A stretch of 64,000 nucleotides of DNA from an uncultured Methylomirabilota bacterium (GTDB taxonomy: Bacteria > Methylomirabilota > Methylomirabilia > Methylomirabilales > 2-02-FULL-66-22): positions 536,630 through 600,629 of the forward strand of contig CAWJHW010000004.1 in NCBI GenBank assembly GCA_963842855.1, read 5' to 3'. The position numbers and the translations under genes are program-made. Numbering within the stretch: position 1 is the stretch's first letter; the number at the start of each line of letters is the position of its first letter. Shown here piece after piece: positions 3,840 through 36,807 of the stretch. The notes beneath the pieces were generated by a model. The model was not told the DNA's origin and ran no database searches. It worked only from the letters and a program-made list of their open reading frames with translations.

Positions 3840-3866
3840 GGACGCGGCGTCATACTGCTCTCCCTT

Positions 3867-12329: not shown

Positions 12330-12607
12330 GGCGTTCTTTTCCGTCCAGACGCTCTCCACTGCCGTTCGTCTTCATTCACACTGGGGTCTGGGCGTAGATC
12401 CAGCCGGAGCGCCACGGTTCGGTCCCCGGGGGGAAGCGGGATAGTATGGGCCCGGGAATAAGCCCCGCCGGCCCCCCCTGCATTTGGGTGCCGGGGGGGA
12501 AAATTCCCGGGATGCCCGGAGATTCCCTCGCCGCGATCTCCCTTGCGTTCACACGCCATTCGTGGTATCCGCTTTGACATTAAGGGAGAGGTAGGGGAGA
12601 GGGTACT

Positions 12608-14181: not shown

Positions 14182-14254
14182 GATCGCCTGCTTGATCGTT
14201 AGCCGATAGGGCGAAGACACGTCAGAGAATGGATGACGGACGGGAGTTCAACAG

Positions 14255-19432: not shown

Positions 19433-19439
19433 TGGCTCC

Positions 19440-19838: not shown

Positions 19839-19839
19839 C

Positions 19840-20803: not shown

Positions 20804-20814
20804 TGCTTCACTCC

Positions 20815-23800
20815 CTATCTTGGAACCACAAGTAGCATAGCATCAAGCAGCCGTTTTTCCTCGCTTTCTTTAGGATACAGGGCCGAGAGGGCATTTGCCA
20901 GGCGCAGGAAGTCCGGGCCGCGCTGTTGCTCGGCCTCCAGAAGCGCACGGAGCGCATTGGTCCGCCCGCCCGCTTGCAGGAGCATGGCTGCGTGGACTCG
21001 ATCCAGGGTTGTGGCTTCCCGGCGTGTCCTCAGAGCTTCGTCGCCAACCGTGGCCCCGGCCTTCTTCCGGCCACGTTCCCGACCTTTGATCTCGGGCTCG
21101 ACACCGGATTCACCGAACAGCTTGAGCTGTACCTGGCCGGTTGGGGTCTGCTCGATCCGGTCCGCGACGGCTGAGGCACCCTCCTCGCCGAAGAGTTGCC
21201 TGGAGCGTTCAGCGATCGGGAGGAGGCGAACGACACCCTTCGTCGTCTCGATGATCCGCCCTTCCCACTCGGGCAGGTGAATGCCAAGGGGCTGTGCAAA
21301 GCGGCGGACCACGTCGAAGATGAGGCTGAAGCCCGGCTTCTTTCTTCGGGATGCCTTCTCTTCTTCATCTTCATCTTCCTCAGATTCTTCTCCGGATTCC
21401 TCGGCGCCCTCGTTCGCCTGCGCACCGTTCGTACTTTGAAGAGTCCAGAGGAAGAGTGCAGTCAGCCGTGCGTCTTCTTCCAGGGCACCCGCGGCGCTGT
21501 TGCGGGCCTTTGCTTCAGCCGTCCCAAGGACATGCTCCAGTGCCGTCCGGCCGACGATCTCCCAGACATAGGCCAAGAAGCCGCGCTTGTGTGGTTCGGT
21601 TGCCTCAGGGTCTCCACCCAGCGGGATCTCTCGTTCCTCAGCATCTACGACCTTTGAGTACCGACTGTAAATCTCTAGTGCAGGGCCGATGCAGGCGAAA
21701 ACGAGGTCGGCGCCGCGCACGCCCTCGGACTGCAATCGCTGCATCCACTCGCCCACGCGCCAAGGAAGCTCCCGTAGTACCTGACCCCAGTCGCCAACTG
21801 GCGCCCCCTGAGGGCGGGGGCGGCAAATGAGGTGTACACTGGCGGCGAGGGCCGCGGAGTCGCGGGCCCGGAGCCGATTCGGACGTTCAGTGGAGATTGG
21901 CCATGAGGCCGTAATCATCCAGCCCCCTCGAATCATCCCGGTCAAGAGCGCCTCCCACCCCTCGGTTGTCTTGTGGGCAAATACGACGGAGCCAACCCCA
22001 TCATCACGGAGGATCTGCGCCCCTTTCGCGAACGCTCGTGCCATCACTTCTTCGAAGAAGACACGGTCTTTAGGACGACCCTCAAAGCTCTTCGTCTCGT
22101 CCTGAACCGCCTCATGGTCCTTCGGCGTGAGCGGGTTTGCAGTGTCGAAGGGGTCGCGAAACAGGGGGTGGTCGGGAAGGGTTCGCTTCAGCCAGACGAA
22201 GAAGAAGTCGGAAAGATCGGCATATGGAACGGCATCGTAGTACGGAGGGTCAGTAAACCAGATGGCGCCTGCGTCAGCAGGGAGTGGGTGATCTGCGGCG
22301 TCGGCCATTATTACCTGACCGATCCTCCGATTCGTTGCTGCCCAATTTTCCACGGTCCCGGTTATCTGTTCAAAGATCCCGTCGAGGCCACCGCTCGCCT
22401 GCGCGAGCGGCACACCCTCCGCGAAATCCCACGTCATCGGAAGGGCCTGTCGCTTGAAGACGTGGTCAACTTTTTCCCCATTCGTATCCCAACCCACAAG
22501 ATTCGCGAGTCTGTCGGCAGTTCGAGATACGACGAAGGCCAGCAGAGACCTGATGGAATCCAATAGACCAGGGTTGTCCCTGATGAGCTGAGCAAGGACG
22601 CAAAGATTCAGTTTTTGTCGCGCCGTGAAGAGGTCGCCCCAATGGAGCATCCCGTACCGTTGCACACGAAAGCCGAGCGTGCCGATCGGCGGGAGCGGCT
22701 CATCCGGCACGGGGCTGAGGCCGTTCGGCAGCTTCTCGCCGGCCAGTTTCTCCAGTCGTTTCTGCGCGTTCCAGACGGCCTCGTAGTCGGGGGCTGTGGA
22801 CAGGCGGTAGTGCCGTCCCTGCTCGCCTGGCTTGAGTGTCACCACGGCCAGCAGCCGTGCCCCCCGGAGACGCCGTCCCTTCTTGTCGAAAATCACGTCC
22901 GCCCCGCCGCGCTGCTCGGCGAGCTGCGCCCGGACGCGTTCCGGCGGTAAGACCGCCCCGCAGCCAAGGCAGGTGGCCTTGGCGCGCGTCACCGTGCCCC
23001 CGGGGACTTCGTTCTCCGCTTTCGGCTCGAAGACCTCGAACTCCACGCGCGTCGGCTCGCCCCTGGGCCGCACGACCCTGTGTCGCAGCGCCAGCTTGCG
23101 CTTGGCCTTCTTGCAGAGCCAGAAGGAACGCGCGAGCGGGATCTCCGCACCGCAGTTCGGCGACTCGCACCGAACTGTTCTCGCCCAAAGGTAGGCGATA
23201 GGCCGCGACCCATCAGGATCGAGCGGGTAAAACTCGGCGAGTTCCTTGTCCGCAGCCTTCCTGACCTCCGCACCCACGCGCCGAAGTTCCTGTGCCAACT
23301 CCGGCCCATGCCGGGGAATGTCTTCGAGCATGACCTTGAGGATCAAACAGGCGACAGGATTGAGGTCGCTGGCTGACGTTTCGCAACCGAGGCGCAACGC
23401 TTCTAGCGGGATCGAGCCACCTCCCGCAAACGGGTCCACGACCAGTGGGGTCTCCTCCGGATAAGCGGTTTTCACCAGGCCCCGGGAAACCTCTAGGTAG
23501 TGCTGGTTGGCCGACAGATCCCAGTTGGCGAAATCGCCTATGAACTTGAGGAGAGCCTTCCGGAGATCCCCATCCCTCGGCCCGACTTCGCCCTGGACCC
23601 TCGGCAGCAACGTGCGCGCCCTCGTCTTGAAGTCCGTCGGGCAGTTAGAGTCGCATGGATCCGGCAGAAGCAACCCTAGCAGCATCGCCCGACACGCCGC
23701 TAGTGGCCGCCTCGCCCACCACTGGTGAAACGCCTGCGGGTGGCGACGTACGATCGGCTTCTCCCTCGCCGAGTGGATACCCACAACTGCAATCGGAAAA

Positions 23801-23838
23801 TCCACCTCCGCCAGCCGCTTGCAGTCCTGGGGGATCAC
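20815..23838 (-). CDS. DUF1156-type DNA methyltransferase (COG1743-like, N6-adenine/N4-cytosine class)
   Basis: N-terminal MIPQDCKRLAEVDFPIAVV...HQWWARRPLAACRAM (DUF1156 signature). AdoMet motif DPFAGGGSIPLEALRLG and catalytic FTDPPYYDAVPY. GTG start overlaps the upstream stop (GTGA). Confidence 0.85.
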   Translation of the reverse strand: MIPQDCKRLAEVDFPIAVVGIHSAREKPIVRRHPQAFHQWWARRPLAACRAMLLGLLLPDPCDSNCPTDFKTRARTLLPRVQGEVGPRDGDLRKALLKFIGDFANWDLSANQHYLEVSRGLVKTAYPEETPLVVDPFAGGGSIPLEALRLGCETSASDLNPVACLILKVMLEDIPRHGPELAQELRRVGAEVRKAADKELAEFYPLDPDGSRPIAYLWARTVRCESPNCGAEIPLARSFWLCKKAKRKLALRHRVVRPRGEPTRVEFEVFEPKAENEVPGGTVTRAKATCLGCGAVLPPERVRAQLAEQRGGADVIFDKKGRRLRGARLLAVVTLKPGEQGRHYRLSTAPDYEAVWNAQKRLEKLAGEKLPNGLSPVPDEPLPPIGTLGFRVQRYGMLHWGDLFTARQKLNLCVLAQLIRDNPGLLDSIRSLLAFVVSRTADRLANLVGWDTNGEKVDHVFKRQALPMTWDFAEGVPLAQASGGLDGIFEQITGTVENWAATNRRIGQVIMADAADHPLPADAGAIWFTDPPYYDAVPYADLSDFFFVWLKRTLPDHPLFRDPFDTANPLTPKDHEAVQDETKSFEGRPKDRVFFEEVMARAFAKGAQILRDDGVGSVVFAHKTTEGWEALLTGMIRGGWMITASWPISTERPNRLRARDSAALAASVHLICRPRPQGAPVGDWGQVLRELPWRVGEWMQRLQSEGVRGADLVFACIGPALEIYSRYSKVVDAEEREIPLGGDPEATEPHKRGFLAYVWEIVGRTALEHVLGTAEAKARNSAAGALEEDARLTALFLWTLQSTNGAQANEGAEESGEESEEDEDEEEKASRRKKPGFSLIFDVVRRFAQPLGIHLPEWEGRIIETTKGVVRLLPIAERSRQLFGEEGASAVADRIEQTPTGQVQLKLFGESGVEPEIKGRERGRKKAGATVGDEALRTRREATTLDRVHAAMLLQAGGRTNALRALLEAEQQRGPDFLRLANALSALYPKESEEKRLLDAMLLVVPR

Positions 23839-25073
23839 GCGGGCTTGTGCTCCTTCCAGAGGCGGACGATGAAGCGATCATCGTCTTCGATCAGGTCCGG
23901 CTCCGAGCCGTTGTGCGCCAGCATGCCCTGCACGATCTTGCGCGGGACGCCAAGGCCGGTGGCCTCGACGTAGCGGTAGTCTCGCAGCACTTCCTTGACG
24001 AGCTCGTTGCGTGACGCGCGGTAGCCCGCGCGCATCTTGTCCACGGTGACCGTGTTCGGGAGGCGGCCGGGGGAAATCACTTCCAGGCGGTCGGAGTAGA
24101 TCGCCAACTCGATGTCGGTGACCGTGATCGTGTAGTCGCGGTGGGCGATGGCGTTGACCACGGCCTCGCGGACCGCCTCCAGCGGATAGTCCCAGCGCTC
24201 TTGGCGCCTGCCCCCATCGTCGATCCAGGCCGCGATGGTGACGCTTCGCCGAACGAAGTCGAGCGCCTGGTCGATGATCCCCGTTTCGACGACGTCGCCC
24301 TCTTCGGAGAAGAGGGCCACCGCCGGGCCACGAATCACGGTCCTCTCCTTCGCTTCATAGTCCTTCGCCGTGCCCGAGTACGCGACGGCGGTGATGCCCG
24401 ATTGAGGCAGGTACTTGTTGGGCCGCGATCCTAACAGGAGCAGTCCTCCTGCACTCGGAATGGGGCGACCCCGATCCTCGACCATGAGCTCCGTGTTGAC
24501 CAGGAGACGAATCCAGCCTTCCTGATCGCCATCGTCCGGACATGCCTGCCGCCGAACATCGCGGAAGTAGTTGACCAGCCGCCGCCGGTCGAGATCGGCT
24601 ACCGACGAACCCGGAACTGGTTTGCGGTCGTACTGCAATCGGCCCGACTGCTGGTACAGGCGCATCTCCTCTTCGTCGGTCGCATCACGCGTGGTCGTTC
24701 CAACCCGGACCTGGGTCATCCAGGCCGAGGCTCGCTTGGCCTTGTAAGGCTTGTCGGGGCTATCCGCGGGGAGCGAGACGATGCCCAGGATCCTGCCAGG
24801 CTCCCACTCGAAGGTCTCCCAGTACGGAATCGCGGCCGGGCGAAGGTGAACGCGGGCGACCTCCATCACCCATTCTTCGGCCTTCTCGGGCGTGCGCGTT
24901 AGACCGGATACCGTGCGGTCCTTCTCTACCCCGAGGAGGATGTAGCCACCCTCGAGGTTGAGCAGTGCGGCCATCTCCTCGGCAAGCTTCTCCGGGCGAA
25001 TGTCGTCCCGCTTGAACTCAACCCCGGAGTTCTCGCCGTTGTGGATCAAGTCGGCCAGATCGGTTCGATTCAT
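23835..25073 (-). CDS. AlbA_2 (Schlafen-like) DNA-binding domain plus HATPase_c_4-type C-terminal domain protein
   Basis: DLIHNGENSGVEFKRD...NLEGGYILLGVEKD N-terminus and ...EAVVNAIAHRDY...IYSDRLEVISPGRLPN... C-terminus are typical of the 'putative DNA-binding / divergent AAA' proteins common in defence islands. Confidence 0.7.
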   Translation of the reverse strand: MNRTDLADLIHNGENSGVEFKRDDIRPEKLAEEMAALLNLEGGYILLGVEKDRTVSGLTRTPEKAEEWVMEVARVHLRPAAIPYWETFEWEPGRILGIVSLPADSPDKPYKAKRASAWMTQVRVGTTTRDATDEEEMRLYQQSGRLQYDRKPVPGSSVADLDRRRLVNYFRDVRRQACPDDGDQEGWIRLLVNTELMVEDRGRPIPSAGGLLLLGSRPNKYLPQSGITAVAYSGTAKDYEAKERTVIRGPAVALFSEEGDVVETGIIDQALDFVRRSVTIAAWIDDGGRRQERWDYPLEAVREAVVNAIAHRDYTITVTDIELAIYSDRLEVISPGRLPNTVTVDKMRAGYRASRNELVKEVLRDYRYVEATGLGVPRKIVQGMLAHNGSEPDLIEDDDRFIVRLWKEHKPA

Positions 25074-25084
25074 CTCGCCTTTCC

Positions 25085-27787
25085 TCAGAAGCCGTACTTC
25101 CGCCGCCGCATCTCGAAGGCTTCCTTGCCGCCCTCGAGGATCTCCTCCACCAGCTCGCGCACCGGGCGGGAGTCGATCGAGCCCATGTGCTCGTGCGCGA
25201 TGCGCGCATGCCCACGTTCGGCCTCGCCCGATGCACTGAGGCCGACGATCAGTTCGGCGTCACCGAGCACGGGGATATTCGCGTTGTGGGTCGAGAAGAC
25301 GAACTGCCGGCGCTGCTTCTCTTCGCGCATGCGCGGCACCACGCCCTCGGTGATGAAGCGGTTATCGAGGTCGTCCTCCGGCTGGTCCACGACGAGGGGC
25401 GCGTCGGACTCGAGAAGGAGGAGCAGAAGGACGGCCGTCGCCTTCTGGCCGGTCGAGAGGTCCTCGAGCGCCTGCCAGGCGGGCGGATCCCCGGCCGGCG
25501 CCGTGTTGAGCCGGATCGCCGTGGTCGGCGGCAAATCGAGCTCCTCGATGCGCATTAGCACCTCGGGCTCCGCCTTAGCGAGCCGCTCGGCCTGCGCCGG
25601 GGTGATGCTGTACGCCTTGTTCAGCGCGTCCGTGCCCGCCCGGCACGCCTCGACGAACTGGGTCAGTGATAGGGCTTGGACACGAGCGAGCGACTCGATG
25701 GCCTCGGACAGCCGCCCCCCGACCTCATCACGCAGCGTCCGGAACAGCGGCTCGCGGTCGCCGGCGGCCGTGACCTCGACCTGGACCTTGTCGCGCAGCT
25801 TCTGGTTGACCTTCTTCGCGGCGCGATCCAGGCGCCGGAATTCCTCGGCTTTGAGATCCTCCCACTCGGCGAGGAGTGCCCGGCGGCGGTCGGCGTGCTC
25901 CTTCTCAACGCGGCGCACGAGATTCTGGCGCTCGCGGAGCGGCCGGAGCTCCTCGATCTGGCGCCGCAGTCGGATGAACTCCTCGCCATCCACTCGCGAC
26001 TTCTGGAGCTCGCGGAGGATCCGCTCGTAAGCGGCCTGGACGTCCTTCTTACGCGTCTCCCATTCCGCGCGCACCGCAGCGACCCCTTGGTCCGCGCGCT
26101 GCAGGGCCTGCTCCAGGTCCTTCGCCACGCGTTCCAGATCGCGATCGAGCTGCGCGAAGACCTCATTGGCACGCGACAGGATCTCCTTCCCGGGCAGGTC
26201 CTCGAGCGCCTTGGCCGAGAGGAACGCGCGATCGATGGGGATCTCCCGCTTCAGGCTCTCCTGGCACTCGCGGAAGGGAGCGAGGCGCTCGGGAATGGAG
26301 GCGAGCACCCGCTCCTCGCGGACGAGCAGGCTTTGTTCACGGAGCCGCTCTTCGAGGCCCGCTTCGCGGAACCGTTGGAGTGTTTCCTCCAAGCCAGGGA
26401 GCGCGGCGAGACGTTCCTCGATCTGCCGTAGCTCGGCGCGCGTGTCCAAAAGGCTGCGCCGGTTCTTCTCCATGTCGCGTCGTAGAGCGGCCTTGCGTCG
26501 CGGCAGCGACTCGTCCCGCTCGACGAAGCGGTCAAGCAGGCGCGTGAGCTTCTCGCGGCTCTTGGTGAGCTCCGAGATCTCATGCTGCCCGTAGACCTCG
26601 ACGCGGGGGAGCACGTCCTGGGGCGAAAGGTTCGAGACCTCGCCTTGGTCATCGCGCACCAGGGGTGGGTTGGGGATGGTTCGCTCGATACGGTATTCGC
26701 GGACAGCCGGCCGATGCGCGCGTACAAGGAGGGAGATCTTCGTGCCGCTCTTCAGCACGTGCCGCACGATCCCTTCGTGCGTCTTGCGCGCCTCGTCACC
26801 GACTGCGTCGAGGGCCAGCACGGAACGAATACTCTCGACGACCGTCGATTTGCCGGTGCCGCGCCCGCCGACGAGGACATTGAGGTTAGGGTTGAAGTGA
26901 ACGGAGGCGCCGTCGAGGAATCCGCCCTCCCAAGCCAGTGCGACGAGCTCGGCATGCTCCTCGGGCTCGAGCTTGCCCTGTGTCGGATTCAGTCGAATGC
27001 GGGATCCCGGATCGAGAAAAGCCTGGCGCAAGCCTTCGATGCTGACCTCGGACATCTTGATCCAGCAGGTTGCTGAACGGTCTTCGAGATCTTCGGGTTT
27101 TACGATGTCGCCCGCATTGACTACGGCGACAGCGAGCCTATCCTCCGCGGCGTGGGCGCGGCGGTAATCGGCGTTCCTGTTTTCGACGATCTCACGCACA
27201 TCCTGCGGCAGGTCCTCGACCGGACCCGGAATCTGGATCGCGAGCAGGTCTTCACCCTGCCAGGCATTGATCCTCGCTTGACCGCTGACAACCTTGAAGA
27301 GGCCCTTGTCGGCGGTCACATGAGCCGCAATCGTGACGCCACCTTGCTCTCGGACGCAGCGTAGAATGTCGACGAAGCTCATGGTCGACAGGTCGGACGA
27401 GGGCTTCGTGCTGGTCACACCGAACACGCCGAGGAACCGCTCGAGCTGGTGCTGCTCGACGTCCTGCGGATAGATGCACAGGACGTGAACGCCTTCGCTC
27501 GACGACAGTTCGAATCCCGGAAACACGTGGATGCCGCGTTCGCCTGCCGCGTCCCGAAATGCGGGTACCCCGCTGACGTCGTTGTGGTCGGTGATGGCAA
27601 GCACAGAGACACGGATCTCGATGGCCTTGTCGACGATCGCCTGCGCATGCGCGCGGGCATCCCCGCCAGAGGGCTTTCCGCGAAACGTGCCGCCGTAGTG
27701 GTGCGGATTCACTTGCAGAGCGCACTGGTGGAAGACAGCGCCCGCAGGAAGTGTCCTGGCCTTGGCGATCGGATCGTTGGAGTTCAC
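25085..27787 (-). CDS. PHP-domain phosphoesterase fused to an SMC/RecF-like ABC ATPase with coiled coil (resembles the single-gene Ppl-type defence candidate)
   Basis: N-terminus ...CALQVNPHHY...VLAITDHNDVSG...HVFPGFEL (PHP motifs). Walker A VLVGGRGTGKST, a long coiled coil, signature LSTGQKATAVL and Walker B LVVDQPEDDLDN. Start taken at the second in-frame GTG (27787), 6 nt after GGAGG. GTG at 27793 (GTGA overlap with the upstream stop) is an alternative. Confidence 0.7.
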   Translation of the reverse strand: MNSNDPIAKARTLPAGAVFHQCALQVNPHHYGGTFRGKPSGGDARAHAQAIVDKAIEIRVSVLAITDHNDVSGVPAFRDAAGERGIHVFPGFELSSSEGVHVLCIYPQDVEQHQLERFLGVFGVTSTKPSSDLSTMSFVDILRCVREQGGVTIAAHVTADKGLFKVVSGQARINAWQGEDLLAIQIPGPVEDLPQDVREIVENRNADYRRAHAAEDRLAVAVVNAGDIVKPEDLEDRSATCWIKMSEVSIEGLRQAFLDPGSRIRLNPTQGKLEPEEHAELVALAWEGGFLDGASVHFNPNLNVLVGGRGTGKSTVVESIRSVLALDAVGDEARKTHEGIVRHVLKSGTKISLLVRAHRPAVREYRIERTIPNPPLVRDDQGEVSNLSPQDVLPRVEVYGQHEISELTKSREKLTRLLDRFVERDESLPRRKAALRRDMEKNRRSLLDTRAELRQIEERLAALPGLEETLQRFREAGLEERLREQSLLVREERVLASIPERLAPFRECQESLKREIPIDRAFLSAKALEDLPGKEILSRANEVFAQLDRDLERVAKDLEQALQRADQGVAAVRAEWETRKKDVQAAYERILRELQKSRVDGEEFIRLRRQIEELRPLRERQNLVRRVEKEHADRRRALLAEWEDLKAEEFRRLDRAAKKVNQKLRDKVQVEVTAAGDREPLFRTLRDEVGGRLSEAIESLARVQALSLTQFVEACRAGTDALNKAYSITPAQAERLAKAEPEVLMRIEELDLPPTTAIRLNTAPAGDPPAWQALEDLSTGQKATAVLLLLLLESDAPLVVDQPEDDLDNRFITEGVVPRMREEKQRRQFVFSTHNANIPVLGDAELIVGLSASGEAERGHARIAHEHMGSIDSRPVRELVEEILEGGKEAFEMRRRKYGF

Positions 27788-27789
27788 TT

Positions 27790-28170
27790 TCACCCTCCGT
27801 ACGGCGGCGTGTCCTCCCGCACCTGCATCGGCCTCGTCATCGCGTTCACCGAGAGGTAGTAGTGGGCGACCTTCGTCACCTCGTTCCAGTCGAGACGGGC
27901 AGGGTCGCGGATCGGCTCCTGGAGCCGCGGCGCAGTGTCGCAATCGGTGACGACGTAGAGCCAATAGCAGTCGCGCCGGTCCTCCGTCTCATGGTGCCTC
28001 TTCACATCTGACCACATCGCCCGGCAGGCGGCCAACAGTCCCTGCGCCCACCAGAGGTGGAGCGTGCTCGGGTGGCCGTGGCGGATAGACTTCTCCCTCG
28101 CCGCGTGTTTGCTCACCACGGCAATCGGAAAATCCACCTCCGCGAGTCGCTTGCAGTCCCTTGGGATCAT
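27790..28170 (-). pseudogene. Chimeric remnant: first ~54 codons of a DUF1156 methyltransferase fused to the last ~70 codons of a DUF3883 helicase
   Basis: MIPRDCKRLAEVDFPIAVVSKHAAREKSIRHGHPSTLHLWWAQ..LAACRAM matches the 20815..23838 N-terminus. It is followed directly by ...EDRRDCYWLYVVTDCDTAPRLQEPIRDPARLDWNEVTKVAHYYLSVNAMTRPMQVRED, which matches the 30276..33719 C-terminus (EDRRDCYWLYVVTDCDAQPGLHVNKDPANLPWHEVKKVDHYWLSVDAVRQPMRVREE). Confidence 0.7.
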
Positions 28171-28177
28171 CCTACCC

Positions 28178-28935
28178 TCATAGGGCTGTATACCCCTTTT
28201 CCTGCCAGGACTCGAACTTCTCCAGGACGTAGAATCCAAACGACCAAAGGATACTCAAGCAGATCCTCGCGGCGCTTTGAGTGGAGATCCCAGGGTGCGC
28301 GCCCTCGTCACTGAAGAAGCCGTATACACCGTCAATCAGCTTCTTTCGCTCGTCGTCGTCAAAGAAACCAGCCTTCTGGAGGTAGTCACGAACCTTGACC
28401 GGCTTACCCAGGTCAGGGGTTTCCGATCGCGCCTTGGAAGCCGTTAGTGCAATGTCGGAGAGTAGCTGCTCAACGAACTTGCGTGCCTGGCCGATTGATG
28501 CGTCCCATTTCGCCTGCCGGAATTCGTCTTCACTTTCCTTGAGGTGGTGGATCAGGACATCTGTTTTCAACGTGCCTGAATACTTCCCAAGAAGAACCTC
28601 GATTGCGCTCCTGTGCTCGGTCCCCATACTCTCATCTGGAACCACATGGTTACCATCGACAACGTATCCGTCCCGCACCAGCGCTGCGGTGAGCTCTTGG
28701 CGTGCTGGTTCACCAAGACGTTCAAGCCCAGCCCGGATGAGACGAAGGATGAGATCTGGTCTCCCCGTCGACTCCAGATCTCGAAACCCATTGAGGAGTC
28801 GCTCCTCCTTGGAGGAGCCAGTGAAGCATTCGGCGGGTACTTCATTCTCGTAGATCAAGAGATCAATAGTAGAGCCTCTCAAATCCTGTAATACCCGGAC
28901 CGCAGTACCACACGTCTTGCGGCTCAACACAGCCA
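28178..28935 (-). CDS. Hypothetical protein (alpha-helical; cargo gene in the helicase-methylase interval)
   Basis: ORF 28178..28996. Start chosen at the ATG at 28935 because the upstream codons are an out-of-frame read of a helicase 3' remnant. No family recognised, though the C-terminal ...GFFSDEGAHPG...AARICLSILW is vaguely Abi_C-like. Confidence 0.4.
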
Positions 28936-28951
28936 TCACAGCCCCCGTCAC

Positions 28952-29062
28952 GCTATGAGGGTTCTTCGCGGACCCGCATGGGATCCCGGACTGCATCCAC
29001 GCTGAGCCAGTAGTGGTCCACCTTCTTGACCTCGTGCCATGGGAAGCTTGGCCGGACCCTTA
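28952..29062 (-). pseudogene. Orphan remnant of the helicase 3' end (last ~30 codons, one indel)
   Basis: The minus-strand sequence reads ...KGPAKLP(indel)WHEVKKVDHYWLSVDAVRDPMRVREEPS*. This is near-identical to the C-terminus of the 30276..33719 product. DNA 28990-29045 aligns to 30335-30395. Confidence 0.65.
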
Positions 29063-29229
29063 CTTACCTTTCTCGTCAGTCTGAGCTTGCGCTCACCGAG
29101 CTCCCCCGATGCATGGCTGACTGTACGCTCTCCAATGCCCTCACATGGAGATACTACCTCGTTTCGCGGCCTGTGTGACTCTTACCCCCGGGCTCGGTAA
29201 GTTATTACCACATTCTTTACCACATTGCG

Positions 29230-30279
29230 CTACTTATTACCTAATTTACGCCAGGCAGCGTAGCGCCCGCGTTTCTCGACGGTTAGGCGCTTTTGACGAC
29301 GCAAGGAATTGAGTACTGTCCGCACCATATCCCGACTCACGGAGGGGCACAGGCGCTCCACGTCGGAGATGCTGAATTGCTCCGGAAGCTCAGCGATGGC
29401 TGCCTCGACCGCCTCGGTCTTTGCCCCCCGGCGGGTTGAGAGCTGGCTGATCCGCTGTTCGAACTCGCGATAGGCCGCTCGGACGACGGTGAGGAAGTAC
29501 GCCCACCACGGGGAGAGATCATGTCGGCCCTCATGCCAGCCTTCTGAGGAGCGGGCCAGGGCTTCGTAGTAGGATTCCTTGCTCTCCTCCACCAGGCGTT
29601 CGAGGCTGATGTAGCGCCCAACGGCGTAGCCATGGGTGTATAGAGCGAGGAGGGTCAAGAGGCGCGAGGCCCGACCGTTGCCGTCCCGGAATGGATGGAT
29701 GCAGAGAAAGTCCAGGATCAGGTTTGCCACAGCGAGAAGGGGTGGCAAGAGTTCCTGGTCTAGCGCGTGCCGGTACGCGAGGCACAGATCGTCTACCGCC
29801 TTCGGCGTGTCAACGGCTGGGACAGGACGAAAGCGTATCCACCGTCTTCCCTGCACGTCCACTTCGATGATCTCGTTGTCCTGACGCTTCCATTGGCCTG
29901 CATCTCCACCGCCCGCCTGGGCGAGCGCATGCAAGCGCCGGATTGTAGCCGATTCTAGCCGGGCCTCAGCATGATGCGTATGGACCCAGTTCAGCGCGTT
30001 CCGGTAGCCAACAATCTCCTCCTCCGAACGGTCGCGAGGCCGCGCTCGGCCCAGGATCAAAGGACGCAGCCTGGATCTTTCTACGATCACCCCCTCGATC
30101 CGGTTGGACGACTCGGTGCTCTCGACGAGGGCGAGTTCCCGCAGGGTCCGGAGGACTTCGGGCTTCTGGCGTTCGTAAAGCTGCTGCCGCCCTTTGCACT
30201 CCATCACAGTGCCCAGGAGCCATGACACGTTGAGGGGCACGCTGATCTCATGCGGGCGTTGCCACCGGAACGATTTCAT
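29230..30279 (-). CDS. Fic/DOC family protein (AMPylase-type) with C-terminal winged-helix-like region
   Basis: Canonical Fic motif HPFRDGNGRASRLL. The ATG overlaps the helicase stop (ATGA), so it is translationally coupled to the helicase gene. Confidence 0.85.
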   Translation of the reverse strand: MKSFRWQRPHEISVPLNVSWLLGTVMECKGRQQLYERQKPEVLRTLRELALVESTESSNRIEGVIVERSRLRPLILGRARPRDRSEEEIVGYRNALNWVHTHHAEARLESATIRRLHALAQAGGGDAGQWKRQDNEIIEVDVQGRRWIRFRPVPAVDTPKAVDDLCLAYRHALDQELLPPLLAVANLILDFLCIHPFRDGNGRASRLLTLLALYTHGYAVGRYISLERLVEESKESYYEALARSSEGWHEGRHDLSPWWAYFLTVVRAAYREFEQRISQLSTRRGAKTEAVEAAIAELPEQFSISDVERLCPSVSRDMVRTVLNSLRRQKRLTVEKRGRYAAWRKLGNK

Positions 30280-33200
30280 GTCACGCCCCCATCAGGAGCT
30301 GGCGGCTCTTCACGAACGCGCATGGGTTGCCTCACGGCATCCACGCTAAGCCAGTAGTGGTCCACCTTTTTGACCTCGTGCCAGGGGAGGTTCGCTGGAT
30401 CCTTGTTGACATGCAGGCCTGGTTGGGCGTCACAGTCGGTGACGACGTAGAGCCAGTAGCAGTCGCGCCGATCCTCGGCTACACGCTTCTCATTGGGCGT
30501 GAGGCCGATCGTCCCCGTGGACCCGCCGAGGCCCTTGACCTCGATGAGGCGCAATTCGCCACTTTGTGTGTCCAGGCTCGTCAGGTCGTAGCCCAGGTTC
30601 TGTTCGTGCACATCGGCCACGGCGCGTCCGGCGGCCCGCTCGTACTCCATGGCCACGCGCATGGCGATGGCCTCGGTCTCGGCATCAGGGCGCAGGCGCC
30701 GGACCTCAGGCTTCTCCCGCTCCGGATGCGGCAGGACGAGAACGCTGGCAATCCGTTCGACAGCCTGGAGGCTCAGGGACCGCTGGCGCTCCAGTTCCTG
30801 GCGCCGCCGCTCGCGCCGCGTCATGAGGGCCGCATGGCGATCCTCGGCCTGCTTCAGGTTCCCCGCCGCGCCCTCCACCCCACGCTCGGTCTCCTCGGCC
30901 AGCCGGCCGATCAGCCGATCCTCTCGCTGCATGAGCTCCGTGAGGGAGAGCTCGACGTGGGCCGCGATCCGATCTACCTCCGCGACGCGCTCTTGTCGGA
31001 CCTCGTCGAGGAACGGGGACAACGCCCCTTGCGTGAGCCAGTCCCTGGCCTCGGGAAGGTGGGCCACGGGCGGGAGCGTCTCGGGTGCCTTGCCGGGACT
31101 GAAGTTGCCCAAGGCGCCCGGCTCCTGACGCTTGGGCTCTTTGCCTTCCGCTACCTCCACCGCGAAGAGGCGCTCGTGGATCACTTGCCCCAGGCCATCC
31201 ACCACCCGCGCCCGGTAGAAGTCCAGCCGGGCCGGGGCAGCGTGTTCCACGGAGTAGAAGCAGGCGCCCTGGGCCAGCACGTCCCGGGCGGTTTCCCAGA
31301 CGTGGCGCCGGAGCGCCTCGAATAGCGGGTGCCCGGGGGTCACCCATTCGAGGCTGTGTCGCTCGGCCGTCTCACGGTCTGTTGACAGTCGGGGGTATTT
31401 GTTCGCCAGGGCGGCCAGCTTCCGGTCGGGAGCCGTTTCGTACTGGCGGAGGGTGGTGGGCGTGACGCCCGGGTCGAAGGAATGGGGGAGACTCGCGAGG
31501 GGCTTCAAGGTATAGCGGGCGTGGCCGGCCGCCTCGCGCAGGAACCGGGCAATGGTTTCGGGGACCACGCGGCGTTCCTGGGCAAGCGCCCGTCGCTCGA
31601 TGAGCATGTCCAGGTTCAATTTCTTGGACGCCAGCCCTTCCAAAGCATTCTGGCAGATGGCCCGGAACCGGTCTTCCTGCACATCGCGGAGCAGGCGGTC
31701 CTCCATGTCTTCCTGCCCGAGCTCCCCAGCATAATAGGCACGGAGGATCCGTTCGATCTGGGCGGCCGGCAGGATCTCGCCCACCACGTTGAAGACGGCG
31801 TCGTCGTCCAGGGCGTCGCGGATCTCCTGGAGCTTCTCCAGTAGCTTCTGGAGGACGCGCCCCTCAATGGTATTGGTAGCGACGAAGTTGAAGATCAGGC
31901 AGTCGTGGATTTGGCCGTACCGGTGGATACGGCCCATCCGCTGCTCCAGCCGGTTGGGGTTCCACGGGATGTCGTAGTTGAAAAGGATATGGCAGGACTG
32001 GAGGTTGATGCCCTCCCCGGCCGCCTCGGTGGCGACGAGGATCTGGATCGCGCCGTCCTTGAACTGCTGCTCGGAATAGAGCCGGGTGCCCGGCTCGTCC
32101 CGCGAGCCCGCCTTCATCCCGCCGTGGATGACGCCGACGCGGAAGCCCCAGTCCCGGAGCTTTCCGGGGACACCCTGGAGCTTGTTCCCCGCCAGGTAGT
32201 CCAGCGTGTCCTTAAACTCGGTAAAGATGAGCAGGCGTTGATCCGGCTTGTCGAAGAAGCCCTGCTCCTTGAGGATCGTCTTGAGCTGGGCGAGCTTCGC
32301 CTCCTGGCCAGCCTCCTCCACCTTCTTTGCCTGGTCGGCCAGCTCCTTGAGCCGGGCGATTTCTTCCTCGGCCTCATGGCGGTTCTGGGCCAGGGTGATG
32401 GCCTCCAGCAGGGCCTCCAGGCGCTCGCGCTCGGCCTCCTCCATCTCCTCGATTTCCTCGGGGCCCGGAATCTCTGGCGGCGCCGTGCGGAGCAGCTCGT
32501 CAGCCCGGCGCAGCCCCTCCTGGAGGCGATGAGACCGGTTCTCCAGGGACCGGTGCATGGCGTAGGCGCTGGAGGCCAGCCGACGCTGATACAGGGACAT
32601 CAGGAAGCCCACAGCCCGGGCCCGCGGATCGTCCCCCTGGGCGGCGGCCTTGGCACTCTGTTGCTTCACGAAACGGGTGACGTCCCGGTAGAGAACGAAC
32701 TCGTCCCCATCAATGGTAAAGTCCACCGTATGGGTAATGCGCTTGGTGAAGATCTTCCGGGCGGCCCAGGTCCCGTCGGGCTGGCGCTCCGGGAAATAGA
32801 CCATGGCTTCCTTGGTGCGGCGCAGGTAAAACGGCGCCCGCCGCTGCTCCATCGCCTGGCGGATGGAGCGGACGTCCGCGTAGGCGTCCTCATCCAGGAG
32901 CTGGAGGAAGAGGCTGAAGTTGGTCGGGTCCCCCTTGTGCGGGGTCGCCGTGAGCATGAGGAGGTGGTCTGAGGATTCCCGCAGCAGCTCGCCCAGGGCA
33001 TACCGGGCAGTCTTCCTCGCCGGGGGCGTCCAGGACATGCGGTGGGCCTCGTCCACGATCACCAGATCCCAATGCACCTGCTTGAGGCCCGGGAGGATGG
33101 TGGTGCGCTTGGCCAGGTCCAGGGAGGTCAGGATTTGTTTTTGTTCCATCCATTGGTTGATCCCAAACTGATCCCGGATGTCGTCGCCCTTGAGGACGAC

Positions 33201-33719
33201 GAACTTCTCGTCGAACTTCTCGTTCAGCTCCCGCTGCCACTGGAACGTCAGGTTCGCCGGGCAGACAATCAGCGTGCGCTCGGCCAGGCCCCGGAGTTTC
33301 AGCTCCCGGATGAGGAGCCCGGCCATGATGGTCTTGCCGGCGCCCGCATCGTCCGCGAGGAGGAACCGGACCCGGGCCAGCTTGAGGAGGGAATCGTAGA
33401 CCGCCTCAAGTTGGTGCGGGAGGGGATCTACGCGCGAAATGGACAGGCCGAAATAGGGGTCGAACTCGTACGCGATGCCGAGGGTGTAAGCCTGAAGACC
33501 GAGGCGCAAGAGTGCGCCATCGCCTGTGTAGGTGTAGGCGGCTCCGTGGATTCGAAGCGTTTTGATTTGCTCAGAGGTGAGGGTGACACTGCGGAAGCGC
33601 TCCGTCTGGACACCAACCAGGCCCAGGACCCAGGTATCGTTCCCCCCCTGGCGGATGGTTTCGACCCGCATGGGCTCGTGGAACAGCGAGCCATTCAGAA
33701 TCTGGCCGGGCTCTATCAT
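30276..33719 (-). CDS. SNF2-family helicase with C-terminal DUF3883 (restriction-endonuclease-like) domain
   Basis: LPHQLEAV...LLADDAGAGKTIMAG (motif I), VIVDEAHRM (motif II), LMLTATPHKG, ...ILVATEAAGEGINLQ...FNYDIPWNPNRLEQRMGRIHRYGQ (motifs V/VI). C-terminal ...GYDLTSLD...LRLIEVKGLG...EDRRDCYWLYVV. Confidence 0.85.
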   Translation of the reverse strand: MIEPGQILNGSLFHEPMRVETIRQGGNDTWVLGLVGVQTERFRSVTLTSEQIKTLRIHGAAYTYTGDGALLRLGLQAYTLGIAYEFDPYFGLSISRVDPLPHQLEAVYDSLLKLARVRFLLADDAGAGKTIMAGLLIRELKLRGLAERTLIVCPANLTFQWQRELNEKFDEKFVVLKGDDIRDQFGINQWMEQKQILTSLDLAKRTTILPGLKQVHWDLVIVDEAHRMSWTPPARKTARYALGELLRESSDHLLMLTATPHKGDPTNFSLFLQLLDEDAYADVRSIRQAMEQRRAPFYLRRTKEAMVYFPERQPDGTWAARKIFTKRITHTVDFTIDGDEFVLYRDVTRFVKQQSAKAAAQGDDPRARAVGFLMSLYQRRLASSAYAMHRSLENRSHRLQEGLRRADELLRTAPPEIPGPEEIEEMEEAERERLEALLEAITLAQNRHEAEEEIARLKELADQAKKVEEAGQEAKLAQLKTILKEQGFFDKPDQRLLIFTEFKDTLDYLAGNKLQGVPGKLRDWGFRVGVIHGGMKAGSRDEPGTRLYSEQQFKDGAIQILVATEAAGEGINLQSCHILFNYDIPWNPNRLEQRMGRIHRYGQIHDCLIFNFVATNTIEGRVLQKLLEKLQEIRDALDDDAVFNVVGEILPAAQIERILRAYYAGELGQEDMEDRLLRDVQEDRFRAICQNALEGLASKKLNLDMLIERRALAQERRVVPETIARFLREAAGHARYTLKPLASLPHSFDPGVTPTTLRQYETAPDRKLAALANKYPRLSTDRETAERHSLEWVTPGHPLFEALRRHVWETARDVLAQGACFYSVEHAAPARLDFYRARVVDGLGQVIHERLFAVEVAEGKEPKRQEPGALGNFSPGKAPETLPPVAHLPEARDWLTQGALSPFLDEVRQERVAEVDRIAAHVELSLTELMQREDRLIGRLAEETERGVEGAAGNLKQAEDRHAALMTRRERRRQELERQRSLSLQAVERIASVLVLPHPEREKPEVRRLRPDAETEAIAMRVAMEYERAAGRAVADVHEQNLGYDLTSLDTQSGELRLIEVKGLGGSTGTIGLTPNEKRVAEDRRDCYWLYVVTDCDAQPGLHVNKDPANLPWHEVKKVDHYWLSVDAVRQPMRVREEPPAPDGGVT

Positions 33720-34807: not shown

Positions 34808-35824
34808 ATGATCACGCACGTCAAGGGCAGTCTGTTCGAATCACCCGCGAAGGTTCTCGTCAACACGGTGAATACGGTCGGCGTCATGGGGAGGGGTATT
34901 GCGAAAACCTTCAAAGAAATCTACCCGGAGATGTTCTCCCAGTACCAGCAGCTATGCGAGAAGCGAGAGCTGCAGACCGGAAAGCTCTGGCTATATAGGA
35001 CCGAACACAAATGGATACTCAACTTCCCGACCAAAGTCCATTGGCGTCAACCATCCAAGCTAGAGTACATCGAGCAGGGACTCGTCAAGTTCGTATCAGC
35101 CTACCCGGCTCTGGGCATCACCAGCATCGCCTTCCCGCAATTGGGGTGCGGGAACGGAGAATTGGACTGGGAAACGGCTGTCCGACCCCTAATGACGAGA
35201 TACCTCGGCCGACTTCCCATTGACACGTTCATCTACGAATACGAAGGGGAATTCGCCAAACCTGAACACAGGGATGTCGCGGCCATGAATGCTTGGCTGC
35301 GGAGCGAGCCGCGAACCCTGGCCTTTGAGGAGGTGTGGCGAGATCTGTGCGACCATGTTGGCATGGGATTGGACCTGAAGACGTGGGACGGCGAGGACGA
35401 TTTCCGAGTCATCATCACAGATCGACCAGAACATGGAATCCAAATCTGGTTAAGTTCCAAGAGCGTATGGGGGCACCTTGTCGCTTCGCTGACCCGGCTA
35501 GCTCTGTTGATTCCTGTTCAATGGCGTCCTCGGGTCATTCGGCCTGGAGGCATTTTCATACCGAAGGAGGCCATGCTGGATCTTTGGCAGAACATCCGGG
35601 CCTACGGATTCTGTGTGCCTCGCATTATGTCGCAGGGCCTCGATCTCTTTGCTCCGTATGTCATGGCCCTCCTTGACCGTCTCGATTATGTGAGGCGTGT
35701 TGAGTTATTGCCACAGACTGCAGGAGGCTTCGGCGAGAAAGAGGCTGCGTTGCAGTTGTTCGTTCCCCCCACTCCTCGACCTGCCAGATCATCGCAACCT
35801 GCCTTCGCGGTGCAGCGAGTGTGA
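34808..35824 (+). CDS. darG: Macrodomain protein, DarG-like antitoxin (ADP-ribosyl-DNA glycohydrolase type)
   Basis: VKGSLFESPAKVLVNTVNTVGVMGRGIAKTFKEIYPEMF...KWILNFPTKVHWRQPSKLEYIEQGL...ITSIAFPQLGCGNGELDW is the DarG-type macrodomain pattern. It is followed by a ~190-aa C-terminal domain, as in DarG. Confidence 0.8.
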   Translation: MITHVKGSLFESPAKVLVNTVNTVGVMGRGIAKTFKEIYPEMFSQYQQLCEKRELQTGKLWLYRTEHKWILNFPTKVHWRQPSKLEYIEQGLVKFVSAYPALGITSIAFPQLGCGNGELDWETAVRPLMTRYLGRLPIDTFIYEYEGEFAKPEHRDVAAMNAWLRSEPRTLAFEEVWRDLCDHVGMGLDLKTWDGEDDFRVIITDRPEHGIQIWLSSKSVWGHLVASLTRLALLIPVQWRPRVIRPGGIFIPKEAMLDLWQNIRAYGFCVPRIMSQGLDLFAPYVMALLDRLDYVRRVELLPQTAGGFGEKEAALQLFVPPTPRPARSSQPAFAVQRV

Positions 35825-36807
35825 ACGTCCCGAGGAAGCCGGACTCCGAGAGAATCAAAGCTCACATCAAGCGTCTCAAAGAGCAGCCTTGGTTGGGCGA
35901 AGCTCAGCGATGGTGGCCGGACTACTTGTTCAGAGTCGATGACATCCGTGCTGCTGCCACAATCCTCAACAGTGGGTACCTCCTCTCCCGGAAGGAAGCG
36001 CAGGATGCTGGGGTATTGGTCGTCAACTCCGCAAGTCCCGATGTTATCGCAGCCACAGCCGAACGATGGAAGCGTTATGTCCGTTTGTACTTTCGACCCA
36101 AGACGCCAACTCAATACCGCAATGAAGGCTTCCGGCCATCCCAGAATTACGCCCTTAGTGCTCATTGTCCCGTCCCCATCGTAATGCTCTTCGACGCAGG
36201 CGAGATTTTGACGCGATCGGATGCAGAATTCAGTGATGGAAACCTGGCAGCAGATGCGTCAACGGGCAAGGATTACGAGTTTCTCTGCGGAATCCCCTTC
36301 GAGAAGGTTTATCACGACAGAAGACTTGATGAGCCTGAGAAGAGGTCGATCATTTATCACCGTCATGCCGAGGTCATTGTTCCCAGCCGACTGGATCTGT
36401 CGTCGTTGCGCTTTATCGTTTGCAGGACACAAGCCGAATACGAAACGCTACAGCATCTCCTCGATCCAAAAGCACTCAAGCAATGGTCGAGAAGAATCAG
36501 CCAGAAGGCGAACATGCACTACCGTCTCTGGACATTCGTTGAACAGGTCGAACTTAGCAGTAAGCGAGTTCGCTTCAGATTCAATCCCTCATCCCTAACC
36601 CCTGGACCTTTCAGCGCTCGTGTGACAATCCGGGAAGACGCAACGGGCCAAAAGTACGTTTGGGAGAATGGTTCGTACCATGCGAATTCAAAGCTAGAGA
36701 TTAGCCTGGACGAGCTTCAACACCCAGAGAGCTATACTGTACGTCTAGAGCTTGACGATCAATTGGCCCACAGCAACCATTATGCGGAAGACAACTTGCC
36801 CTTCTGA
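35821..36807 (+). CDS. darT: DUF4433 / DarT-like DNA ADP-ribosyltransferase toxin with ~110-aa C-terminal extension
   Basis: LFRVDDIRAAATILNSGYLLSR..., YVRLYFRPKTPTQY, ...EFSDGNLA..., ...HRHAEVIVPSRLDLSSLRFIVCR match conserved DUF4433 blocks. The GTG start overlaps the macro gene stop (GTGA). Confidence 0.75.
   Translation: MNVPRKPDSERIKAHIKRLKEQPWLGEAQRWWPDYLFRVDDIRAAATILNSGYLLSRKEAQDAGVLVVNSASPDVIAATAERWKRYVRLYFRPKTPTQYRNEGFRPSQNYALSAHCPVPIVMLFDAGEILTRSDAEFSDGNLAADASTGKDYEFLCGIPFEKVYHDRRLDEPEKRSIIYHRHAEVIVPSRLDLSSLRFIVCRTQAEYETLQHLLDPKALKQWSRRISQKANMHYRLWTFVEQVELSSKRVRFRFNPSSLTPGPFSARVTIREDATGQKYVWENGSYHANSKLEISLDELQHPESYTVRLELDDQLAHSNHYAEDNLPF

Follow-up and report, generated by a model that had tools for sequence, protein, structure and literature searches.

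Hma (helicase-methylase-ATPase) systems, since renamed Type-1 BREX-related (PMC12839542), are built from three core genes that are frequently accompanied by 'embedded' defence genes (Payne et al. 2021, PMC8565338; Payne et al. 2024 preprint, 10.1101/2024.01.29.577857). Such embedded genes are carried by 62.7% of 1,485 Hma systems (10.1101/2024.01.29.577857). Here, we describe an Hma operon of an uncultured Methylomirabilota bacterium, located in a 64,000-nt stretch of contig CAWJHW010000004.1 that we will call the window. All core and cargo genes of this operon are co-oriented on the minus strand (16649-33719), in the order hmaA - Fic - hmaA tail - hyp252 - hmaB head::hmaA tail - TrlF/Ppl - AlbA_2 - hmaB - 278-aa hypothetical - hmaC. 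The tails and the head in this list are partial copies of the ends of the core genes, which we will refer to as orphans. They stand between different cargo blocks, and we consider it probable that they are recombination scars bordering stacked defence cassettes inside the operon. As a basis for comparison, a one-genome-per-species scan yielded at least 576 relatives, the best 80 of which were kept as loci (designated by L numbers), with about 25 metagenome loci as a further comparison set.

The Hma operon and three copies of the hmaA 3′ end

HmaA, HmaB and HmaC are encoded by three co-oriented genes in one locus, as expected for an Hma core; the window proteins were assigned to families using Pfam, PADLOC and NCBIfam. 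The hmaA gene (30276-33719, minus strand) encodes an SNF2 helicase with a C-terminal NOV_C/DUF3883 nuclease-like (PD-(D/E)xK-like) domain. It matches PADLOC HmaA across residues 50-1103 (1e-172), as well as SNF2-rel_dom, Helicase_C and NOV_C in Pfam, and an exact look-up of the helicase protein returned no record. The hmaB gene (20815-23838, minus strand) encodes an intact DUF1156 N6-adenine methylase (PADLOC HmaB 9e-106; Pfam DUF1156 1.6e-17), whose match to NCBIfam DUF1156_antiphage lies under the cut-off of that model. The hmaC gene (16649-19432, minus strand) encodes a DUF499 ATPase (PADLOC HmaC 2e-92; Pfam DUF499). Phage protection has been reported for other Hma members (PMC11232893). 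Further co-oriented genes of defence families lie between the core genes of the window, which is the arrangement described as embedding.

An earlier, sequence-only reading of this DNA had noticed that the end of the helicase gene occurs three times. A repeat finder and tblastn recover these copies on the minus strand, essentially at the coordinates given then. Copy 1 is the intact end of hmaA (last 64 codons and stop, 30276-30470), where the TGA stop (30276-30278) overlaps the ATG of the Fic gene as ATGA (30276-30279). Copy 2, or orphan 2 (28953-29062, minus strand), consists of the last ~37 hmaA codons with a TAG stop (28953-28955); its boundary of 28953 is one base away from the 28952 first proposed for a fragment preceding the 252-aa hypothetical gene (hyp252). 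Positions 28941-29044 are 82% identical to 30285-30388 over 104 nt, and tblastn reports 81% aa identity (E=4e-15). The ATG of hyp252 (28934-28936) follows 17 nt downstream, and orphan 2 is homologous to a longer orphan of 79 codons that precedes the same hypothetical gene in L001.

Copy 3, or orphan 3 (27790-27984, minus strand), comprises the last 64 hmaA codons (EDRRDCYW...PPYGG) and a TGA, in frame with a remnant of hmaB (tblastn E=2.6e-21). According to the repeat finder, its first 48 nt (27937-27984) are 92% identical to 30429-30476, with ~65% identity beyond. Recent gene conversion was considered as the cause of the 92% stretch and rejected, as the EDRRDCYWLYVV block is ~90% conserved across all alleles (e.g. 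L063 and L001). The allele that best matches orphan 3 is that of L063 (69% aa identity), not the resident hmaA. The start of the next gene, a PHP-ATPase, had been described as overlapping the stop of copy 3, and the stop indeed overlaps a GTG (GTGA). Another 3 nt beyond it comes a second GTG, which GGAGG precedes at a distance of 6 nt, and either GTG is a possible start. This GGAGG Shine-Dalgarno sequence for the next gene is formed by the conserved C-terminal YGG codons of hmaA.

Repeats can mislead assemblers, and the source is probably a metagenome-assembled genome (MAG), so collapsed or chimeric repeats deserve consideration. Aligning the three 3′ ends at the nucleotide level, a check that the earlier reading had proposed, argues against assembly duplication: the copies are only 64-82% identical, and are therefore not assembly duplicates. 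Moreover, no two copies share a flank, the same layout was met with in 14 independent genome assemblies (long-read chromosomes included) and in many metagenome contigs, and the exact chimeric protein of the window, discussed below, is on record from an 845-kb contig. An assembly artefact is, in our view, extremely improbable.

Cargo blocks between hmaA and hmaB

The first cargo block is a gene for a SoFic-like Fic/DOC protein (29230-30279, minus strand; Pfam Fic 1.7e-14; PADLOC SoFic 7e-36), which stays under the cut-off of NCBIfam SoFic. The same Fic family also stands directly after hmaA in L011, L027, L028, L037, L051, L057, L070 and L071. From the Fic stop to orphan 2 extends a non-coding spacer of 167 nt (29063-29229, minus strand), which holds the illegitimate joint truncating orphan 2 and shows no similarity to the regions 3′ of Fic in other Fic loci. 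A promoter and terminator scan of 27600-30500 returned no sites, and cassette-specific signals are therefore unsupported.

The second block is the hyp252 gene (28178-28936, minus strand), with a G+C content of 55-56% versus 62-69% in its neighbours. Its product has no match in Pfam, PADLOC or NCBIfam, and is 79% identical (aa) to the ORF (open reading frame) at the same position in L001, where an hmaA orphan of that locus likewise precedes it. We regard hyp252 as an uncharacterised candidate defence gene. The third block holds two genes. The first encodes a TrlF-family protein with a PHP domain and an AAA/SMC-like ATPase (Ppl-like; 25085-27793, minus strand; NCBIfam TrlF_fam_ATP 516 bits with a cut-off of 350; PADLOC Ppl 2e-43). 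The second encodes an AlbA_2 (Schlafen-like) and HATPase_c_4 protein (23835-25073, minus strand; Pfam), and its stop overlaps the start of hmaB. AlbA_2/HATPase_c_4 proteins are the commonest cargo family of the survey, with 21 ORFs.

The HmaB-HmaA chimera

Upstream of the third block, orphan 3 had been read as an in-frame fusion of the start of a DUF1156 methylase gene to the helicase end, and this fusion exists as a 126-aa ORF running from an ATG at 28168-28170 to the TGA at 27790-27792. Its first part is an orphan hmaB 5′ end (codons 1-52; 28015-28170, minus strand; Pfam DUF1156 1.7e-13; PADLOC HmaB 7e-16) that starts 7 nt after the hyp252 stop. This remnant is 75% identical (nt) to the intact hmaB 5′ end at 23683-23837. 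At the protein level it is 92% identical to the HmaB N-termini of L001 and L003, versus ~70% to the HmaB of the window, and its conserved WWARRP motif has decayed to WWAQGL. Between the hmaB and hmaA parts, a linker of 10 codons (WSDVKRHHET; 27985-28014, minus strand) marks the joint region. The linker aligns with neither parent and recurs in L088 (87% nt identity) and in P0124.

The chimera had been read as a hybrid. It is not private to this locus, but belongs to a widespread family of ~128-aa ORFs situated between different cargo blocks. Using the 126-aa ORF as query, we recovered ~19 clusters of proteins with lengths of 122-146 aa (126-131 aa in most cases) that are 60-81% identical over their full length and share the same architecture, together with chimeras that have other joints. 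Such other joints occur in L120, L121, L143/L145, L151 and L074. Across the family both native junctions are kept: the start abuts or overlaps the stop of the upstream cargo gene, and the stop overlaps the start of the downstream one. One and the same joint is found upstream of Ppl-AlbA_2, AIPR or SIR2-like genes and downstream of varied cargo. In L081, the chimera lies in the order ...Fic-like_C x2 - chimera - Ppl - AlbA_2 - hmaB; in L084, in the order AlbA_2 - RmuC - KTSC - OLD - chimera - AIPR - hmaB; and in L088, in the order chimera - SIR2-like - hmaB.

The joints themselves vary. They retain 24-100 hmaB codons and 46-170 hmaA codons across the family, and four joints that were independently ascertained at the nucleotide level (window-type, L120, L151-type and L121) have different breakpoints and are all in frame. 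Window-type and L081-type chimeras share the hmaB breakpoint and a 13-codon spacing, with linkers that are only 30% identical. A CTGCTC microhomology shared by hmaB (RAVLLAL) and hmaA (TILLTPNE) marks the L081-type joint. In the L088 chimera, the hmaB part, the linker and the conserved block are as in the window, while the tail shares only 64% identity with the window chimera and 91% with orphan 2. To judge from sequence, this pattern points to a crossover within the nearly invariant EDRRDCYWLYVV block. Frameshifts or stops disrupt the copies in L074 and L143, and probably also that in L145, which has the same segment layout. As a separate observation, an AT-rich stretch with repeated AATAATTGC(A/T)CG motifs is found just upstream of the chimera start in L143 (6198-6257) and L151 (4772-4831). 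It may be operator- or promoter-like, or perhaps represents the native hmaB upstream region of that lineage.

Recurrence across Hma loci

Spacing between hmaA and hmaB was counted over 67 loci. The two genes are adjacent with a 4-bp overlap in 6/67, and 61/67 hold 0.5-6.4 kb of cargo in between; this is the variability downstream of the helicase on which the sequence-only reading had staked its proposal. The 231 cargo ORFs fall into 159 sequence clusters that are mostly of a defence type, with AlbA_2/HATPase_c_4, Fic, YhcG/DUF1016 (PDC-S02), Ppl/TrlF, OLD, AIPR/AbiU, RmuC, HerA, UvrD/GajB-like and MNT-HEPN among the recurrent ones. The antisense ORFs grouped as 'cluster 4' by the greedy ORF caller were discarded, being the reverse strand of MNT-HEPN cassettes or hmaB heads.

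To look for core-gene fragments, we compared 66 complete HmaA and 44 complete HmaB sequences with 73 regions lying between hmaA and hmaB (215 kb). Counted over 72 genome loci and the window, there are 17 hmaA-derived fragments, carried by 14/72 genome loci, with two in the window. All 17 lie on the operon strand and extend to 15 or fewer residues from the C-terminus, while their variable 5′ breakpoints leave 37-226 codons. The 6 hmaB-derived fragments show the mirror image: they too lie on the operon strand, and residue 1 is the first residue of each. Neither internal nor antisense pieces of hma genes were found in these 73 regions. The junction with the next cargo gene is often preserved as well: in 7/17 orphan tails, stop and start lie -8 to +3 nt apart (mostly -4), a spacing that is also frequent between intact hmaA and its first cargo gene. 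In 15/17 cases the hmaA orphan is preceded by cargo, not by remains of hmaB or hmaC.

The second junction of the operon behaves in a similar way. Across loci, hmaB and hmaC are separated by 5-3332 bp, and L029 and L045 carry orphan hmaB 3′ ends in front of hmaC. In the window, this junction holds an embedded gene for a 278-aa hypothetical protein (19840-20676, minus strand) that has no family match in Pfam, PADLOC or NCBIfam. The orphan pattern is also present in three long-read chromosome assemblies (L029, L045 and L054). A metagenome scan with a chimera profile mostly returned plain hmaA ends and plain adjacent hmaA/hmaB junctions, and therefore speaks to recurrence, not to frequency.

Several loci carry pieces that merit separate mention. 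In L043, hmaA is soon followed by a 5′ fragment of hmaC (3678-3974), and in L060 an internal or 3′ fragment of hmaB lies upstream of hmaA (178-699); both fall outside the main pattern, and could be left over from larger rearrangements or stem from neighbouring systems. In the orphan hmaA tails of L012 (11575-11640) and L032 (11290-11325), a short GC-rich insertion (33 and 63 nt) that is partly palindromic separates the AED codons from the RRDCYW codons at an identical position. It may derive from a small repeat element, from a hairpin or from a lesion inherited from a common ancestor, and the L017 orphan may carry a related one. In L032, a unit composed of a cargo-gene 3′ remnant, a joint and a 77-codon hmaA orphan is present in two copies (11162-11481 and 12587-12873), each before different cargo, and the unit is found again in L012 (11257-11796). 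This duplication suggests that orphans themselves serve as recombination sites. In L054 (10999-12625 of OZ241879.1, a long-read chromosome), an MNT-HEPN cassette sits between 226-codon (678-nt) direct repeats of the hmaA end with 94% identity, which on sequence grounds looks like a very recent event. Among the protein database matches P0150-P0240, many predicted proteins of 70-220 aa consist of the HmaA tail alone (PF13020); some come from contigs 50-118 kb in length, and for some the annotation reads 'DUF3883 domain-containing protein'. These are probably orphan tails called as genes, and form a class of annotation artefacts.

Mosaic histories

Comparison with related loci indicates which pieces share a history. 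The closest relative, L001 (an NC10 MAG), has the order hmaA - MNT - HEPN - 79-codon hmaA orphan - hyp252 - hmaB. Positions 28015-29032 of the window are 77% identical (nt) over 1019 nt to the segment of L001 that runs from the orphan through hyp252 into the hmaB 5′ end, and the homology ends exactly at the chimera breakpoint. HmaA of the window is 93% identical (aa) to HmaA of L001, yet the cargo differs and HmaB is only 66% identical. Within hmaA, most of the gene matches L001 at 93-99% nucleotide identity, but the final ~150 codons reach only 79-88% (third positions 50-66%); they lie beside the first cassette, which differs between the two loci. As far as sequence comparison goes, the hmaA 3′ end is a separate mosaic block.

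The third cargo block points to different relatives. TrlF/Ppl of the window is 87-88% identical (aa) to its homologues in L081, L120 and L140, with HmaA only 69-71% (L081, L140) and HmaB 63-69% (all three) identical. Orphan 3 has a tail (..RLDWNEVTKVAHYYL..PPYGG) of the type found in front of the close Ppl homologues in those three loci, and not of the type of the window's own hmaA. L027, in the order hmaA - Fic - orphan - Ppl - AlbA_2 - hmaB, has the arrangement of the window minus its middle block.

Coding potential of the fragments

We compared fragments and intact genes at 14 positions of the tail at which 37 intact HmaA proteins show no variation. Mismatches at these positions amount to 2.3% in an independent set of 65 intact genes, 14.7% in chimeras and 22.2% in orphans. 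Several fragment copies also carry frameshifts, stops or insertions, and the fragments start after the EVK catalytic motif of the nuclease-like domain. For these reasons, and judged by their sequences, the fragments are not working HmaA or HmaB domains. On the short segments available (52 and 64 codons), the ratio of non-synonymous to synonymous substitution rates (dN/dS) is 0.17-0.66 for chimeras versus 0.09-0.30 for intact ends, which is too noisy to tell a scar from a selected ORF.

The chimera could nevertheless be under selection in another capacity: as a translated 'bridge' that leads from the hmaB start context to the hmaA stop and couples the translation of downstream cargo, or as a 'divider' that duplicates the insertion site, creating two cargo slots, each bounded by an hmaA-type arm on the left and an hmaB-type arm on the right and exchangeable independently of the other. 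The similar length and architecture of the ~19 clusters, the breakpoint and spacing shared by window- and L081-type chimeras despite their dissimilar linkers, and the start/stop junctions kept with cargo on both sides fit such a role. So do the use of one joint beside Ppl-AlbA_2, AIPR or SIR2-like genes after different cargo, the fact that all four resolved joints are in frame, and the Shine-Dalgarno sequence within the YGG codons. However, residues that are invariant in real HmaA are relaxed six-fold in chimeras, the L074 and L143 (and probably L145) copies are disrupted, and the joints vary so widely that no common protein fold is kept in the family. Furthermore, plain orphans such as orphan 2 lie outside translatable ORFs and the cargo behind them persists nonetheless, while discovery as predicted proteins skews the sample towards open frames. 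We think it unlikely that the chimera is a selected ORF.

How cargo may enter the operon

We favour an account in which cargo would move between Hma loci together with the adjoining hmaA end on its left and hmaB end on its right. The highly conserved ends of the core genes would then act as homology arms. Homologous crossover in both arms would swap the cargo without leaving a scar. When only one arm recombines homologously and the other end is joined illegitimately, dozens to hundreds of codons inside the resident gene end, the block would be added instead of exchanged. The resident gene end would remain as an orphan, still attached to the old cargo through its native stop/start junction. This combination of one-sided homology and illegitimate joining would amount to homology-facilitated illegitimate recombination (HFIR). 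Data that bear on HFIR are the anchor-type mosaicism in hmaA, the CTGCTC at the L081-type joint, and the window joint, where 30 nt match neither parent. A direct illegitimate fusion of an hmaB 5′ end to an hmaA 3′ end from two loci would be an alternative route with the same outcome. The anatomy, its recurrence and polarity, the preserved junctions, the mosaic histories and the relaxed constraint on the fragments are observations; the recombination pathway, the order of events and a later role of orphans as homology for exchange or loop-out are what we infer from these end products.

The sequence-only reading had envisaged incoming modules that recombine via the conserved gene end and push old cargo downstream, as in Rhs/CDI (contact-dependent growth inhibition) loci. 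Entry of cargo through the conserved gene end, with the old hmaA end orphaned before the older cargo in an Rhs/CDI-like manner, finds good support in the 80 genome and ~25 metagenome loci. A downstream push as the sole direction does not: hmaB 5′ ends (from codon 1) and hmaB 3′ ends (before hmaC) are orphaned too, and a downstream push is therefore only one possible direction.

The same reading had taken the chimera to imply a deletion between two tandem systems, which in terms of this locus would mean two complete Hma systems and a deletion joining the hmaB of the upstream one, at around codon 52, to the hmaA of the downstream one, at codon -64. Such a deletion would yield exactly the hmaB-head::hmaA-tail joint, defence systems do cluster (the window being a defence island), and the L060 and L043 fragments could be viewed as traces of neighbouring systems. 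Yet two complete Hma systems within 10 kb occur in 0/80 loci, and 15/17 hmaA orphans follow cargo. The deletion would also require two rare steps, i.e. gain of a tandem system and a precise, viable loss of 5-6 kb, where a single illegitimate join explains the chimera equally well. The chimera does not call for a tandem deletion, which we regard as quite unlikely.

Circular cassettes offer another path to the same anatomy. A unit of hmaA tail, cargo and hmaB head could be looped out, either illegitimately or between direct repeats, and reintegrated by a single (Campbell-type) crossover, in which case the chimera joint would be the closure of the circle. One joint would then give rise to two layouts: cargo-chimera-resident cargo after a crossover in the hmaA tail, and hmaA-chimera-cargo-hmaB after one in the hmaB head. 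The spread of the same joint over many loci with different neighbours, the 94% direct repeat around the L054 cassette, and the common joint and orphan of L012 and L032 before different cargo are in line with this idea. Most orphans, however, have private breakpoints and no hmaB head beside them, so that most events would need a fresh illegitimate join anyway. In addition, the homology arms are short (100-700 nt) and often just 70-85% identical, and no circular form was seen. We consider circles a possible, if doubtful, route.

Site-specific insertion is the remaining alternative. Integrative elements duplicate the 3′ end of a tRNA or tmRNA target gene using a site-specific integrase and a fixed core site, and an integron-like or integrase-driven insertion at the hmaA 3′ end, bringing a replacement copy like phages and integrative and conjugative elements do at tRNA gene ends, would leave an intact gene, an element and a displaced 3′ direct repeat reminiscent of attL/attR. 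As in the Hma loci, the target gene of such elements stays intact and the displaced partial copy forms a direct repeat beyond the insert; the same holds for the 'insertion with long target duplication' of Helicobacter restriction-modification genes, a comparison that we offer as a lead only. The small palindromic insertion at one spot in the L012 and L032 orphans could also be counted in favour of site-specific insertion. Site-specific integration is nonetheless very improbable, because no integrase or recombinase is found among the window cargo or the surveyed cassettes, the breakpoints range over 37-226 codons instead of marking one site, and conserved inverted repeats are absent from the cassette borders. 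Moreover, only 3.1% of Hma-embedded genes are mobility-associated according to Payne et al. (10.1101/2024.01.29.577857).

Several points weigh against the reading of the repeats as recombination scars. Recombination is deduced from end products, nearly all of them in MAGs or metagenome contigs, and no event was observed. The three acquisitions in the window are compatible with more than one order and direction. The 10-codon linker of the window lacks an identifiable parent, and clear microhomology is present at one joint only. Finally, the open frame of constant length seen in many chimeras is not expected if they are nothing but scars.

Relation to known systems

The embedding of defence genes in Hma operons is already known; the orphan ends and the chimera family are new as far as our literature search shows. 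The published Hma systems have the same three core genes and co-oriented nested cargo, including SoFic, Ppl, OLD, AbiU/AIPR and YhcG/PDC-S02, whereas those studies describe neither orphan ends of hmaA and hmaB nor the chimera family, and do not draw the mechanistic inference. The embedding study left out loci with duplicated or pseudogenised hma genes (10.1101/2024.01.29.577857). Its authors state that the cause of embedding 'remains to be explored', and the words recombination, remnant and truncated do not occur in the preprint text (10.1101/2024.01.29.577857). A 2026 survey of BREX-related systems contains no discussion of recombination or fragments, and our literature search found no description of orphan hma ends or of the chimera family.

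A close parallel is found in the type VI secretion systems (T6SS) of Vibrio cholerae, where sequential displacement of effector-immunity modules has been described and HFIR proposed (Kirchberger et al. 2017, PMC5361080). Double-crossover replacement, which is scar-free, is thought to be commoner in these arrays (PMC5361080). As in the Hma loci, a conserved upstream region serves as the anchor, the other end is illegitimate, and old downstream genes with 3′ remnants are shifted into arrays. In contrast, Vibrio displaces a variable effector and keeps the immunity gene, whereas the Hma loci repeat the end of a conserved core enzyme and keep autonomous defence systems, with further scars on the opposite side, formed by hmaB 5′ ends, and at another junction of the operon.

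Rhs and CDI loci undergo C-terminal displacement that gives rise to orphan toxin-immunity arrays, as summarised by Kirchberger et al. from Jackson et al. 2009, Poole et al. 2011 and Koskiniemi et al. 2014 (PMC5361080). Their layout, an intact gene followed by a string of co-oriented, 5′-truncated 3′ ends that each have their own downstream partner, is found in the window and in the survey, and in both cases orphans match alleles of other strains. The orphans of Rhs/CDI loci, however, are polymorphic toxic tips that can be re-activated by recombination, whereas those of Hma loci are conserved tails without the nuclease catalytic motif and under relaxed constraint, and the variable part is a separate cargo gene. 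A toxin tip with an immunity partner is not what the Hma loci contain. As their orphans represent the conserved post-EVK HmaA tail and their partners are autonomous defence genes, the locus works like an Rhs/CDI array without being a member of that class.

Integron arrays likewise hold promoterless, co-oriented adaptive cassettes, often for defence, behind a fixed platform and with short repeated border elements. Hma loci differ in having no integrase, attI or attC, in borders that are platform-gene remnants with variable breakpoints, and in exchange that would proceed via general recombination. No integrase domain was detected in any locus ORF with Pfam, PADLOC or NCBIfam, and no conserved inverted repeats were found at the borders.

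Surroundings of the operon

The operon is part of a defence and mobile-element island that contains NucS-like, FokI-cleavage-like, DarT-DarG and SbcCD-like genes and three transposases. Directly adjoining the Hma operon and divergent to it is a DarTG toxin-antitoxin/defence pair (34808-36807, plus strand), in which the gene for a DarG-like macro-domain protein (34808-35824, plus strand) overlaps that for a DarT ssDNA ADP-ribosyltransferase (35821-36807, plus strand). A NucS_C-like nuclease, a weak match to a FokI cleavage domain, and a Metallophos and AAA_27 (SbcCD-like) pair are encoded at 13165-15619 and 39486-42790 (both plus strand). The transposases bordering the island belong to the IS110 (893-2086, plus strand), IS66 (8676-9965, minus strand) and DDE_5 (42851-44152, minus strand) families. 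An RmuC-family gene is located at 60672-61907, and no tRNA genes that could serve as integration targets are present in the window.

Implications for Hma biology

The nesting of defence genes in other defence systems is a recent observation that has already been put to use for discovery ('guilt by embedding'), while the route by which it comes about had explicitly been left open. Read as scars, the orphan ends would be physical records of insertion, indicating that cargo travels with core-gene ends, that acquisition can be additive, and that both core-gene junctions behave alike. The mechanism thereby becomes testable, with RecA dependence, one-sided homology and loop-out between repeats as its handles, and a means of ordering acquisitions within a locus is gained. 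For database users, hundreds of short 'DUF1156' or 'DUF3883 domain-containing' proteins are probably such scars and constitute an annotation trap, and pipelines that drop loci with duplicated or pseudogenised core genes lose the evidence that orphan ends provide. A further, unlikely but consequential idea is that Hma/BREX-related operons are recombinase-free, RecA-dependent cassette platforms, in which hmaA and hmaB ends are used like att sites and the chimeric mini-ORF is a selected in-frame 'divider' that couples translation through the array and raises the number of slots open to independent exchange. If true, orphan ends would be working parts of a device for the capture of defence genes, and not fossils alone.

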